From: Escherichia coli 042
GTDB taxonomy: Bacteria; Pseudomonadota; Gammaproteobacteria; Enterobacterales; Enterobacteriaceae
DNA: 64,000 nt
NCBI RefSeq assembly: GCF_000027125.1
Contig: NC_017626.1
Strand: one strand, 5' to 3'
In this document: one piece after another, positions 41,669 through 46,288 of the stretch
Layout: each line of letters begins with the position of its first letter
Position numbering within the stretch: the first letter of the stretch is position 1
The notes under the pieces: model-generated
Seen by the model: the letters and a program-made list of their open reading frames with translations, nothing else
Database searches by the model: none
Told to the model about the DNA's origin: nothing
Position numbers and translations under genes: made by a program

Positions 41669-44600
41669 TTATTTCACCTGCATCCCGGTCCATTCGCTCC
41701 CTGCCGCAACACTTTGCTGTGCAGGTGCATAGGAACGCACATAACGAGCAGGAGGCAGAACGAATTGCCCTTTTTGCGAGAAGCGCAGCAAATGGCGGAA
41801 AGTGACCGTTCCCGTAAGTTCTTTCACCAGCACCATATAGGCCAGTTCGCCCATTTCATTTCGCGCTTTTTCCAGCAACTGCCCCTGCTGTTTCGCGGCG
41901 TTGGGTTTATTGACCGAAATGCCCCATGTTGTGCGCTCAACGTCGGCTCCCGGTGGGAGCGGTACTTCCACCTGACCATAGCGCAGAACTGCATCCTGCT
42001 CGCTGGTAAGCGTGATTTCATCGAGATACAGCGCATCGCTGTCAATCTCATTGCTGGTCACCGGCTGCAGAGTAAAGCTCAGCTCTTCTTCACCGGGGAT
42101 AAGCCGATACAACTGGCGTTCAACGGTCACCGGAATGTTACTTTGTTGAGCCGTTTTTGCCGGTTCACGCCAGCGGACCTGCACATTTTGCGGCGATAAT
42201 TCGTCACCAAAAGAGAGAATGTCCGGCACGCCCTGACCAACCCAACGCCAGTATTCGCCCCCTCCAGTTAGCTTATGTTTGGCCCATGCGCCCGCAGGCG
42301 CAGGCAAAACAACTGGAGGCATTGTCGCCATATATTTCGCCAGCCAGTTCATGGCCAGCGCGCGCTCAATAGTAGATTGCTCAGCGGTCAAACCACTTAA
42401 AATAGCAGCCGCCTGGGTAGCGTCGCCCCCGCTATTGAGCAGCACAACCGTGTGCGCCAGCGGCTGATTGCTGTTTGCCGCTTTATCCCACGCATATTGC
42501 TGAACCTGTGGCATCACCGTGGACTTCAACTGCGCTTTTTTCAGCAACGTCATGGTTAAGACGTTTGCCACCGCATCTGCCAGTGGAGATTCCGGTGTAT
42601 CGAGGATCAGGCTGTCATTGATATCGCTGGTGTCTTCCTCAGAGAAATCTTCAGTTTTAGTTCCGCGCCGGGCGATAGCTTCATCCAACCCTTTCAACAA
42701 CGTTTTGCACGGCAGATTCATCTCCTGCGCCCACGCCAGCACCAGCGCCCGATGCAATAACGGCATGTTATCTGCCTGCTCGGCATAACTGTCGAGCATA
42801 TGCTGCCAGTAATCCGGTTGTTGCGTTACGCCGAGCGCCTGGCTGGCCTGCCAGTCGGCGTACCATGCCCATGCCGTGAGGAAGGCGTCGCCATTGCCAT
42901 CTTCACCCCACCAGGTAAAGCGCGCTCCGGGCCCCGCCAGTTGCATCAGCCGCAGACGGTTATCCTGAATCATCTGACGAATGTCGTTAGCGGCGGCACT
43001 TTGATGATCGGCAAGCGAACGCCAGGCGAGACTGAGCGGGATCAGACGGCTACCGGTATTAATCACGCCACCCCACGGTTCATCGACTAACGCATCAAGA
43101 TTGTTACGGAAAATCTCCTGCGGCGTTTCGCTACTTTGTAGCCGGATATTGCTAGCCTGCTCGGGCAACATCAGCGCGTTATCGCCACCGGCGAGCATGA
43201 CATTTTTCTGCTGTTCAACGGGCCAGCTGTTATCCACAAAAGACAGTTTTGTGCTAATGCTGTCCTGCACTTGCCCATTTTGTTGCAGTTCTGCGCTTAA
43301 CAAGCCAGATTGCTGAATGTTCTGCGTCAGCGAAATATAATTCGCCCCTTTGTGCAGCGTCAGCGTCTGGCGCATCTCAGCGCCTGCAAATTTAGTCACC
43401 AGCGCCACCGGTTCGTTATCCTGCTGACTGAAGATAAACAGTCCTGCCGCCGGTTTGTCGCCCATGCGATACACCGTTGGCATACTCCACTTCATGTAGA
43501 GATTTTTTTCCGAACGCAGATAAGCACTCCCCTGCCCGACCAACCCGTCGCCGCTCATCCCACGCGCGGTGATACGCCAGCGGGTTAACGAATCAGGCAT
43601 CAGGAACGTGAAATACGCTTTGCCTTGTTTATCGGTTGTGAGTGACGGCATCCATGCCGCGGTATCCACCTCTTCACGCCGTGGACGTTCAAGCATTTTT
43701 ACTCGCCGCTCGCTGCGGTTAGTCGCGCCTGGCGCAACCGGCTCGCTGGAGAGCGCCTGGTCGTAGCTGATAAACGACAGACTGGAGCTGGTACGCACAT
43801 TGTTACGCCCCAGCGGATAGAAAAATTTGCCGATATTCGGCGCGATTTCCGGTTGCAGCGCGTAGATCATTTCATCGACCACACCAACCGTTAGCTGCGC
43901 AGAAACAGGTTTACCTTTCAGCGACGAGGTTAATTCGACATTGACCAGTTCACCAGGCTGGTAATGGGTTTTGTCCGTTTTCACCCGGATATCCAGCTGG
44001 GAAACGGCAACTTTGATCCCGGCGTTCTGAAAACTGTACTGACCGTTACGGGTATACAGCACCGAAAAAGTGATGTTAGGCGCAAAGGAATTGCTCACCG
44101 GTATGCGGGCTTCATACTGGGTATCGTTTAAACGTTGTAACGTCAGCCAGTTTGCCGGATGCGATAGCAGCGACTGCTGTTCAACGCGATCGCGTTCCAG
44201 CGTCAATAATGCTTCATCAATTGGCTCCGGGAAGGTAATCAGCATCTTCGCGGTTTCGCCAGGCTGGTACAGCGTTTTATTTGCCACAATATCTACCGTA
44301 CCCGCATGCGCCATGCTGCCCTTACCACTGACCGCATGACTTAACCCGGCGAGAATTAAGCCGTCTTTATCGCGTAACGTCAGATTGTAGTTACCTGGTT
44401 TATCGAAATTAACGGTGAAGGATTTACCGCCAGACGGTAGATCTCCGCTGTAGCTTGTTCGGTCTTCCAGGCGTAGCCACTCATACTTAACAGGCACCTG
44501 CTTTGAAGATTCCAGCGCGGCATAACGGAAAACAACCGACTCGCCGCTATTACTGTATTGTGCGGAGGTGCTTAGAGAGTAATGCGCCAGACCGCGTTCA

Positions 44601-46288
44601 ATGAGGATCTCTTTGGTAGTAGTAACACGATATGCCGCGCCATCGCTGGCGGAGACGGTCAGTAAATAGCGGCTCGGTTTATCGGCGGCGGGAAGGTTTA
44701 ACGCTACATTGCCTTTATCGTCAGAAACAGCGTCGCTACCTTCCAGCGACACCGGGAAACGTCCGGCATAACGCAAATCGTTACCAACCATCGAAAGTTG
44801 CTGAGCGCGCAAACTTAACTGCACGCTGGCATCTTTTACCGGTTCGCCATCCGGATAGAGTAGTTGCAGTTTGCCGCTGACCGCTTCGCCAGTTTTGAAA
44901 TCTTTTTTGTCGAGGGCTAAGCCAATCTCAAAATGTGGTTTGATGTAGTTGGCTACGCGAAAACTGCTGCTATAGACCTGTTTGCGGTAAGCCAGGCGTA
45001 ACTCATAACCTCCGGCGACGGCATTTTCTGGCAGGCGGAAACTCCCCTGCCCGCCATTACGCGCATCCAGCGTGACATTGATGGTTTGCAACAGACTGCC
45101 GTTGGCGTCCAGCACTGAAAGCTTCGCCGGGGCGCTGACGATGGGGGATGAATGCAACGGGTCGTGGAACTCGCGGCCCATCACTTTTACATCAACACGA
45201 TCGCCTGCACGATACAGAGGGCGGTCGGTAAAGATATACAAGCGGGTGTTGTAGATTTCGCTTTCGTAGAAAAAATTCTCGGAGACAAAAACGCCGCCTT
45301 CAGCATCTTTACCCAGAATGTATGAACGTTCCGGCGATATATGTTGTAACTGCAAGGTACCGCTGTCATCGGTCACACCGCGGGTCATCACGCCAAGACC
45401 GTCAGTCCACAAGATCTCTGATCCCGGCTTCGCTTCACCCTGTTTTTTACCCGCGGTCCACACCAGGAGCTCGTTACCCGACACTTTGCTAAGCGCCACG
45501 GTATCAGAGACAAATACCACCGTCGTCGCCCGATATCCACCGACCATCGCCTCGACGAGGTACAGTCCCGGCTCTTGTTTGCCGAGAGGAATATAGATGT
45601 TACCCGGCTGCGGCGAGATGAAATTGCTGGATGCGCCTTCCAGTTTTACCCCTTGCTGCGGCTCGACCGGTTTAGCCTGCCATAGTGGGTAACGGAACTG
45701 TTCCACCAGTGGATATTTTTTCAGCGGTGAAAACTGGCTGTTCTGTACATAACGGGAAGGTTTAATAATGGCATTGCCGAGCTGTAATTCGGGTAACGCC
45801 TGAGTCACATTCTGCCGAGACTGAGAAGAAAAAGTACGCTGCATCACGCGGCGAGATTTGCCGTACCAGTTATCCCACAGCCAGGTCAGCGTATTGTTCA
45901 GCCCGTCGCCCAGATATTGCGGTTGCACCACAATGCGATGCAGATTTTTCTGCTGGCGCAAAAATGCCATCGGGTCAGGAATACGATACAGACGAACGTC
46001 CACACCGCCGTACTCTTCCATCTGATAGCGCCGATAATCACGCCCCGGCGCTTCCAGTCGCACTTTCGCCTCTTCACTGCTGCTAAAACTGCTGTCAGCG
46101 AGCAAAAAGAATGTTCCCCCGGCGGGCGGCGCATAGTTGCTGGAAGGAAGCGAATCATCAGCATTAGCAAGCCCTGTTCCCACAAGAGACAGGGACAAGC
46201 ACGCTGCTATCGCGCCAGAAAATTTAAACGATAAATGCCAATGAAATTGGGATTGGAATCGTTGGGTATCCATCGGGTGTCCTTCCAT
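41669..46288 (-). CDS. yfaS: Alpha-2-macroglobulin family protein YfaS, single uninterrupted reading frame
   Basis: 1539-codon ORF; signal-peptide-like segment ([18 protein letters not shown]) follows the first ~25 residues so true start may be an internal ATG (e.g. MDTQRF at 46273); no CxEQ thioester motif seen in translation. Confidence 0.8.

Follow-up and report, generated by a model that had tools for sequence, protein, structure and literature searches.

The minus-strand open reading frame (ORF) of 1539 codons that extends, intact, from a first ATG at 46288 to a stop at 41669 in the 64,000-nucleotide stretch of Escherichia coli 042 DNA analysed here (hereafter, the window) is yfaS, and its product is a MagD-type ("Type II") bacterial alpha-2-macroglobulin (A2M). 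Our overall explanation, which we hold to be probable and in which we place good confidence, is that YfaS is a thioester-less protein of the MagD type that would be translated from the ATG at 46273, exported, and able to act as a non-covalent trap. Megablast matched yfaS in 5383 of 5426 complete E. coli genomes, in which it is annotated as "alpha-2-macroglobulin family protein", and at least 80% of its length is present in 5362 of the 5426; the protein itself is 97% identical to the E. coli protein of that name.

Type I bacterial A2Ms carry a thioester, are lipoproteins and are encoded next to pbpC, whereas Type II A2Ms lack CXEQ and are encoded in the mag operon, and E. coli carries both forms (PMC3735191; PMC5764988). 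A 2025 study linked the mag operon to resistance against peptidoglycan-targeting type VI secretion system effectors (PMC12663445). YfaS is of the same family as MagD (PA4489), encoded by magABCDEF of Pseudomonas aeruginosa (PMC3735191; PMC5764988; PMC12663445), and other Pseudomonas orthologues are about 55% identical to it over the full length. Like MagD, YfaS has neighbours of the DUF2138, DUF1175/MagC, DUF2300 and YfaP_C families, lacks CxEQ, carries a homologous NRSER bait segment and has a predicted signal peptide without a conserved lipobox. The absence of a thioester from YfaS-type proteins and the non-covalent trapping by MagD are thus already published, and the original prediction, made from the letters of the DNA, that YfaS lacks the thioester and has been given too early a start matters little as it was written. 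Its by-products are worth noting, namely an apparently recurrent loss of the thioester in a family that mostly bears it, a start embedded in yfaT/magC and a probable systematic error in the RefSeq start.

The thioester-equivalent site and the fold of YfaS

The C-x-E-Q motif is absent throughout the 1539-amino acid (aa) translation, as originally predicted, and the protein has only two cysteines, C30 and C1194 (1539 numbering). The place at which the missing thioester was then sought, residues 1126–1136 (window 42881–42913, minus strand), was wrong, lying about 55 residues downstream of the real site. In both BLASTP and family-profile alignments, the ECAM/YfhM stretch YPYGCLEQTASGLFP, which contains CLEQ with Cys1187, aligns to the GVIN stretch of YfaS, and FALWDKNGDEEYWLTAY of ECAM, about 55 residues beyond the thioester site, aligns to the motif named in the prediction. 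A profile of 25 YfaS-family sequences reproduced the BLASTP alignment to ECAM (domain E = 7e-9). Because orthologues with an intact CVEQ also carry the WWG...DAFLTAY motif, and because of its alignment to ECAM, the stretch at 42881..42913 is not the thioester site but a conserved motif of the thioester domain (TED), whose ECAM equivalent is LWDKNGDEEYW. The comparison with YfhM/ECAM that the original prediction had proposed as a check thus revealed no overlooked thioester Cys, the homologous column being Gly (G-V-I-N).

The thioester-equivalent site lies at 43055..43081 on the minus strand, where ECAM YPYGCLEQT aligns and where BLASTP, profile and family alignments place GVIN (43058–43069) instead of C-x-E-Q; ECAM C1187, E and Q correspond to YfaS G1074, I1076 and N1077 (1539 numbering). 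In an AlphaFold2 model, this site is found at the N-terminus of a predicted TED helix. The pocket that protects the thioester in ECAM and Sa-A2M consists of two Tyr residues of TED and a Met-Tyr lock contributed by CTMG (PMC4498604). ECAM Y1183-P-Y1185 reads E-P-W in YfaS, the first pocket Tyr being replaced by Glu, and the Met-Tyr of the lock (ESMYVP in ECAM, xMYxP in the family) is replaced by Ser-Tyr (RSYAP, 41723–41737). Judging from these alignments, the thioester machinery of YfaS is dismantled: Gly stands in place of the Cys, Ile replaces Glu and Asn replaces Gln, the first pocket Tyr has become Glu, and the lock Met has become Ser. In Pseudomonas orthologues without a thioester, the loss is confined to the Cys (G-V-E-Q), whereas in YfaS the site reads G-V-I-N and the pocket Tyr and lock Met are gone as well. 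Among the sequences compared, the site of YfaS is the most degenerate seen in the family.

The domain content and the predicted fold are those of an A2M. Pfam matches in YfaS, all above the curated cut-offs, were MG2 (8e-25), A2M_BRD (7.5e-18), A2M (8.8e-13) and bMG10 (1.7e-6), and the Pfam TED domain found no match. The AlphaFold2 model, which covers the C-terminal 509 residues (window 41672–43198; predicted local distance difference test score 89.5), has 13 helices in a TED-like arrangement followed by a beta-sandwich, and its best Foldseek matches were Sa-A2M 4U48 (1.5e-13), ECAM 4ZIU (4.2e-13) and ECAM 5A42 (about 1e-13). From the model, together with Foldseek, a TED-like alpha-helical domain without a thioester was delimited at 42332..43123, and, together with Pfam bMG10, a C-terminal macroglobulin domain (CTMG/bMG10) at 41675..42286, both on the minus strand. 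The modelled TED–CTMG arrangement was closer to native Sa-A2M and ECAM (template modelling score about 0.53) than to protease-activated ECAM (about 0.3).

A single-sequence phmmer search of the Protein Data Bank (PDB) with YfaS matched only C5 and CD109 and missed ECAM, so a family profile was needed; the profile of 25 YfaS-family sequences matched both ECAM (7e-13) and Sa-A2M (1e-10) in the PDB. Complement C5, the best single-sequence PDB match (E = 3e-5, in the MG2 and A2M regions), is another member of the superfamily in which the thioester was lost and the fold kept. The biology of C5 is different, its sequence is very distant, and the likeness to YfaS is one of parallel loss only. As the profile matches and the model indicate, YfaS belongs to the A2M/complement superfamily at the level of the fold. 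It shares superfamily and domain order with the Type I proteins ECAM/YfhM and Sa-A2M (PDB 4ZIQ, 4ZIU, 5A42, 4RTD and 4U48), and the motifs xPxGxxxxTxSxLxP and W....D...LTAY are common to ECAM and YfaS. The two proteins are, however, only about 22% identical, in patches, and YfaS has none of the CLEQ motif, the Tyr1183/Tyr1185/Met-Tyr pocket (PMC4498604), the lipobox and the adjoining pbpC of ECAM.

The probable start of yfaS within yfaT

Three starts of yfaS are in circulation, namely the ATG at 46288 (1539 aa), from which the original prediction read the protein, the ATG at 46273 (1534 aa) of K-12 MG1655, and the GTG at 46183 (1504 aa) of RefSeq and the Prokaryotic Genome Annotation Pipeline (PGAP). 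Together with a TTG at 46198, these are the in-frame candidates. No ATG, GTG or TTG occurs in frame between 46273 and the hydrophobic segment, and the first candidate downstream of 46273, the TTG at 46198 (codon 31), already lies inside that segment and reads CTG in other Escherichia species. We infer that translation most likely starts at the ATG at 46273 (46271..46273, minus strand), which is codon 6 of the 1539-aa ORF and consists of the last base of a yfaT Arg codon and the TG of the following Trp codon (CGA TGG). A Shine–Dalgarno (SD)-like GGAAGGA, made from the Trp-Lys-Asp codons of yfaT, is situated 6 nt upstream of this ATG (46280..46286, minus strand); its duplex with the 3′ end of 16S rRNA has a calculated energy of −5.5 kcal/mol, and every other candidate start has −1.5 kcal/mol or weaker. 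The coding sequence would thus extend from 46273 to the stop TAA at 41671–41669 (41669..46273, minus strand), encoding a 1534-aa preprotein, and its 5′ end would overlap the 3′ end of yfaT out of frame by 67 bp (46207..46273).

The original prediction had its arithmetic right: the first ATG overlaps yfaT (stop TAG at 46209–46207) by 82 bp, and residue 26 of the 1539-aa translation is where the hydrophobic segment sets in. Its preference for an internal start held in that the first ATG is probably unused, but the likely start is only five codons further on and not near the hydrophobic segment. Its use of the overlap as an argument for a later start failed: an overlap of 67 bp with yfaT has been kept in lineages as far apart as Escherichia and Bacteriovorax.

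This conservation was followed in 11 lineages, namely Escherichia (two), Entomohabitans, Superficieibacter, a Serratia-like lineage, Yersinia, three Pseudomonas loci, Bacteriovorax and a 33%-identical metagenomic operon. In all of them, yfaT/magC ends with a stretch that begins W-K/N-D-T/S-R-W, with Arg-Trp always encoded by xGA TGG, and the A2M frame from the resulting ATG is always open into the signal peptide; TGG AAG GAY was found in 10 of the 11. In the three Pseudomonas loci, xGA accounts for only 0.9–4% of Arg codons and ATA for only 1–8% of Ile codons, yet all three keep CGA TGG ATA, although other synonymous positions in the overlap vary. That codons as rare as CGA and ATA are kept points to the overlapping frame being under selection. 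In Bacteriovorax (MATKKRKSQLYWYLSFFIFSSLAFTNLVTA followed by QE) and at locus L017 (METNRTKSKFHWHIQTWIFIALTLFNNVLA followed by GD), the overlap encodes most of a well-formed signal peptide, and many distant representatives have been called independently from a homologous M-A-T-x-x-R-Q-S-Q-F start. On the strength of these comparisons, the 67-bp overlap with yfaT is taken as a real and conserved feature of the family, and a compact case of the start signals of one gene being written in the codons of another.

At the magC stop (CGA TGA) of Pseudomonas, Serratia and Yersinia there is a further ATG, which gives a short classical signal peptide. Unlike the Pseudomonas mag orthologues, YfaS has no such ATGA start; the second ATG is lost in Escherichia (stop TAG) and in Superficieibacter and Entomohabitans (TAA), and the window has in its place an ATA codon, Ile27 in the 1539 numbering (46208..46210, minus strand). 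With the second ATG lost, the upstream ATG would be the sole route to an exported protein in Escherichia, Superficieibacter and Entomohabitans, and no other start was found upstream of the h-region in these three genera, in Bacteriovorax or at locus L017. Initiation at the ATA at 46210 itself was judged unlikely, as it has no SD (−1.5 kcal/mol) and would leave no n-region.

Of 5380 E. coli genomes, 5027 match the 151-nt start region (window 46150–46300) at 99% identity or more; for the whole of yfaS, a single genome reaches that level (best 99.1%). The high conservation of the junction is consistent with a dual-coding constraint. An alternative for the contrast between junction and whole gene is that the body of the yfaS allele in the window is unusually divergent.

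A signal-peptide-like N-terminus exists only with a start at 46273 or 46288. From 46273, a Sec signal peptide of 38 residues is predicted (46160..46273, minus strand), with an n-region, an h-region and a c-region ending in ANA; its Kyte–Doolittle maximum of 1.91, at residues 22–36, is similar to those of the signal peptides of YfaQ and YfaP. In the orthologues inspected, the mature N-terminus is conserved as [DE][DE]xLPxSxY and directly preceded by a small-x-small site; we infer cleavage after A-N-A and before DDSLPSS. Two other modes of export were considered and rejected. The IAAC at residues 27–30 is not taken as a lipobox: Escherichia sp. E1V33 has Tyr in place of its Cys, nothing corresponds to this Cys in Entomohabitans, Superficieibacter or other genera, and it falls midway along the hydrophobic core, upstream of an AxA site. 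Inspection by eye showed no twin-arginine motif, so export by the twin-arginine translocation (Tat) system was rejected as well.

The first ATG as the start is improbable. It gives the longest ORF, and it is present in Escherichia, Entomohabitans, Superficieibacter, Yersinia and the three Pseudomonas loci. However, the ATG at 46288 (46286..46288, minus strand) shows no SD pairing (+0.7 kcal/mol), and the GGAAGGA that serves 46273 lies downstream of it. Furthermore, the Serratia-like locus L008 and Bacteriovorax (locus L007) have CTG (Leu) at this position, and none of the public annotations inspected uses this start.

Slightly less probable still is that RefSeq and PGAP are right, in which case the protein would be a 1504-aa product of the GTG at 46183 (46181..46183, minus strand), with neither a signal peptide nor an overlap with yfaT. 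This GTG avoids the long overlap and is the annotated start both in the E. coli RefSeq genome inspected and in cluster P0003, which has 40,950 member sequences. It is, however, without an SD (+0.6 kcal/mol), E. albertii and Escherichia sp. MOD1 have GCG in its place, and it lies inside the hydrophobic core, so that the h-region would be removed and MGTGLANA left ahead of the conserved mature N-terminus. In addition, MagD is a periplasmic protein (PMC3735191), and each of the operon partners is either exported or anchored. Gene callers have made similar truncated calls in Superficieibacter, Entomohabitans and L017, though a full signal peptide is readable upstream. The RefSeq start thus probably cuts the signal peptide and is a mis-call. 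For the tens of thousands of E. coli YfaS entries that carry it, any expression construct or prediction of localisation derived from it would be wrong, while the K-12 start at the ATG equivalent to 46273 is the one backed by the cross-species comparison.

Apparent thioester loss across the family

Two sets of homologues were compared. Of the 120 closest YfaS homologues, 31 have YPYGCVEQT intact at the thioester column; these come from Pseudomonas and Aquipseudomonas and share about 55% identity with YfaS. Other homologues read YPYGGVEQT, YPWGGVEQT, YPYGSVEQT or YPYCGVEQT, and all Enterobacterales orthologues read EPxGGV[IV]NT. The second set, from an exhaustive search reduced to representatives of 50%-identity clusters, contained 39 full-length members with 31–51% identity over the whole query. 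C-x-E-Q was found in 31 of these 39 diverse representatives, all of which also keep the Met-Tyr lock of CTMG (xMYxP); the remaining eight lack the Cys, and five of them have lost the lock as well. As 31 of 39 representatives have CxEQ, the absence of CXEQ does not define the sequence family.

CxEQ is also found in true mag operons. The CxEQ members P0063 (Pseudomonas sp. LRF_L74) and P0071 (P. citronellolis) are encoded in six-gene mag operons, and P0162, a metagenomic member with 33% identity, is encoded in a five-gene operon, as in E. coli. These three share with YfaS the family (33–55% identity over the full length), the operon and the start embedded in magC, but unlike YfaS they keep YPYGC[VT]EQT and the xMYxP lock, and a thioester is predicted for them. 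In a rough neighbour-joining tree, which has no support values and is read qualitatively, the Enterobacterales formed one thioester-less clade, and CVEQ and GVEQ were intermixed among close Pseudomonas relatives. Given the CxEQ in 31 of 39 representatives, its presence in true mag operons and this tree, the thioester looks ancestral in the YfaS/MagD family and repeatedly lost.

Joining this with the start, we lean moderately towards a reading in which the macroglobulins of mag operons ancestrally had a thioester, lost it in a single event at the root of the Enterobacterales clade that includes YfaS and in several more within Pseudomonas, and share an unusual 67-nt out-of-frame overlap in which codons of magC/yfaT supply the SD, the ATG and the n-region. 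If this is true, the equation of Type II with thioester-less would fit only the two proteins studied and not the family. We found no published statement of a repeated thioester loss or of the magC/yfaT overlap, Budd et al. (2004), which may cover the thioester point, being outside the comparison. Close orthologue pairs with and without CxEQ exist in identical mag operons (P. citronellolis and P. knackmussii versus P. nitroreducens), and such natural pairs would be a clean system for the contribution of the thioester to a periplasmic macroglobulin.

Two side observations concern the genomic setting of the homologues. P0133, a 40%-identical CVEQ homologue at L016:2132-6808, stands alone without mag-type neighbours, so an operon location is not to be assumed for every member of the family. 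In Pseudomonas sp. LRF_L74, a divergently transcribed gene for a 1946-aa A2M with Type-I-like Pfam matches (bMG3, bMG5 and bMG10; L014:1-3387) is located directly upstream of the six-gene mag operon whose MagD homologue has CVEQ.

Proposed action of YfaS and its operon

Non-covalent trapping of a protease that cleaves the bait has been demonstrated for P. aeruginosa MagD: when its native bait ANRSERG was swapped for a tobacco etch virus (TEV) protease site, MagD trapped TEV non-covalently (PMC5764988). The suggestion in the original prediction that YfaS may trap in this way is supported by these experiments on the orthologue, and is published knowledge and not a discovery. The segment of YfaS equivalent to the bait region (43652..43723, minus strand) contains TNRSERR, which matches the MagD bait. 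Across the family this segment hardly varies, even at identities of about 25–30%, in contrast to the hypervariable baits of broad-spectrum A2Ms. Because MagD is processed in vivo to a 100 kDa form in a MagB-dependent manner, the bait segment of YfaS might instead be the place at which a specific protease, possibly an endogenous one, processes the protein.

We propose the following scenario for YfaS. The gene yfaS belongs to a five-gene envelope operon, yfaA-yfaT-yfaS-yfaQ-yfaP. Its start ATG at 46273, 67 nt inside yfaT, and the GGAAGGA would both be supplied by the codons for Trp-Lys-Asp-Thr-Arg-Trp of yfaT, and the translation of yfaS would thereby be coupled to that of yfaT. The overlap would encode the n-region of the 38-residue Sec signal peptide, and cleavage after Ala-Asn-Ala would release a periplasmic protein starting with DDSLPSS. 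By analogy with MagD, YfaS may be associated with the inner membrane through the MagB-like anchor of YfaA, in a complex with its operon partners, and after cleavage of its bait it may hold proteases, or other enzymes that invade the periplasm, non-covalently. The formation of a complex of MagD with MagA, MagB and MagF has been demonstrated only for P. aeruginosa (PMC5764988).

Several points weigh against this scenario. The N-terminus, expression and activity of E. coli YfaS are predicted. The n-region is unusually long (about 17–20 residues) and weakly basic, and the h-region is moderately hydrophobic (Kyte–Doolittle 1.91). The second ATG of Pseudomonas, Serratia and Yersinia could be the true start there, the conservation of the upstream ATG in these genera being no proof of its use, and the nucleotide conservation of the overlap could partly reflect selection on the YfaT C-terminus alone. 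The identity of about 55% between MagD and YfaS was judged from other Pseudomonas orthologues, not from MagD of PAO1, and E. coli has no magA. Furthermore, considering the K-12 pseudogene and the many truncated entries described below, yfaS may be under weak selection in E. coli.

This last point is the core of a further explanation, which we consider very unlikely and about on a par with the GTG start, that Escherichia yfaS is decaying: having lost both its ordinary ATG (ATGA to ATAG) and its thioester, the gene would be poorly exported or expressed and on its way to becoming a pseudogene, and the question of its start would have no functional answer. The second ATG of Pseudomonas, Serratia and Yersinia is indeed gone in Escherichia, and yfaS of K-12 MG1655 (L013:3799-8403) is a pseudogene through a single nonsense change, TGG to TGA, at codon 1368 (1534 numbering), corresponding to window 42185–42187; the K-12 and window genes differ at 191 of 4605 nt (4.1%), without indels. 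Truncated E. coli entries are also numerous (1362, 999 and 959 aa), and some of them occur on tens of contigs. On the other hand, the presence of at least 80% of the length of yfaS in nearly all the complete genomes, as given above, and the 40,950 members of the full-length cluster argue against decay, as does the signal segment, which stays hydrophobic, with a small-x-small site and without indels, across five Escherichia species. In addition, the layout with an upstream ATG and no second ATG is also found in intact distant operons (L007 and L017). The truncated and fused entries, which comprise the 1362-aa form in O157:H7, the 999- and 959-aa forms on 42–54 contigs and fusions with DUF2300, suggest recurrent inactivation of yfaS in E. 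coli lineages.

The gene order at the locus is atoB / yfaP-yfaQ-yfaS-yfaT-yfaA / gyrA, and the E. coli cluster consists of the five genes between gyrA and atoB (window 39238–48557), all on the minus strand. The upstream partner yfaT (46207..46830) encodes an NlpC/P60-like DUF1175/MagC protein according to annotation and Pfam, and yfaA (46827..48515) encodes a protein that has an N-terminal membrane anchor and belongs to DUF2138, the family that occupies the magB position in mag operons. Downstream of yfaS, yfaQ (40019..41668, GTG start) encodes tandem DUF2300 and a SpoIID-like region, the family at the magE position, and yfaP (39238..40014) encodes DUF2135/YfaP_C, the family at the magF position. 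The Pfam families of all four neighbours match, in order, those of the Pseudomonas mag operons retrieved, and all four partners carry signal peptides or an anchor. Unlike the operon of MagD, that of E. coli comprises five genes, and the YfaP_C gene copy known as magA is missing from it, no second, magA-like YfaP_C gene having been found upstream of yfaA between gyrA and atoB; a five-gene mag operon is also found at locus L017. The neighbours of yfaS are yfaT and yfaQ, not pbpC, which in K-12 adjoins yfhM about 310 kb away. The genes yfaA and yfaT overlap by 4 nt (46827–46830), the TAA of yfaS abuts the GTG of yfaQ (41669/41668), and yfaQ and yfaP are separated by a 4-nt gap; these tight junctions are consistent with translational coupling across the whole yfaA–yfaP cluster.

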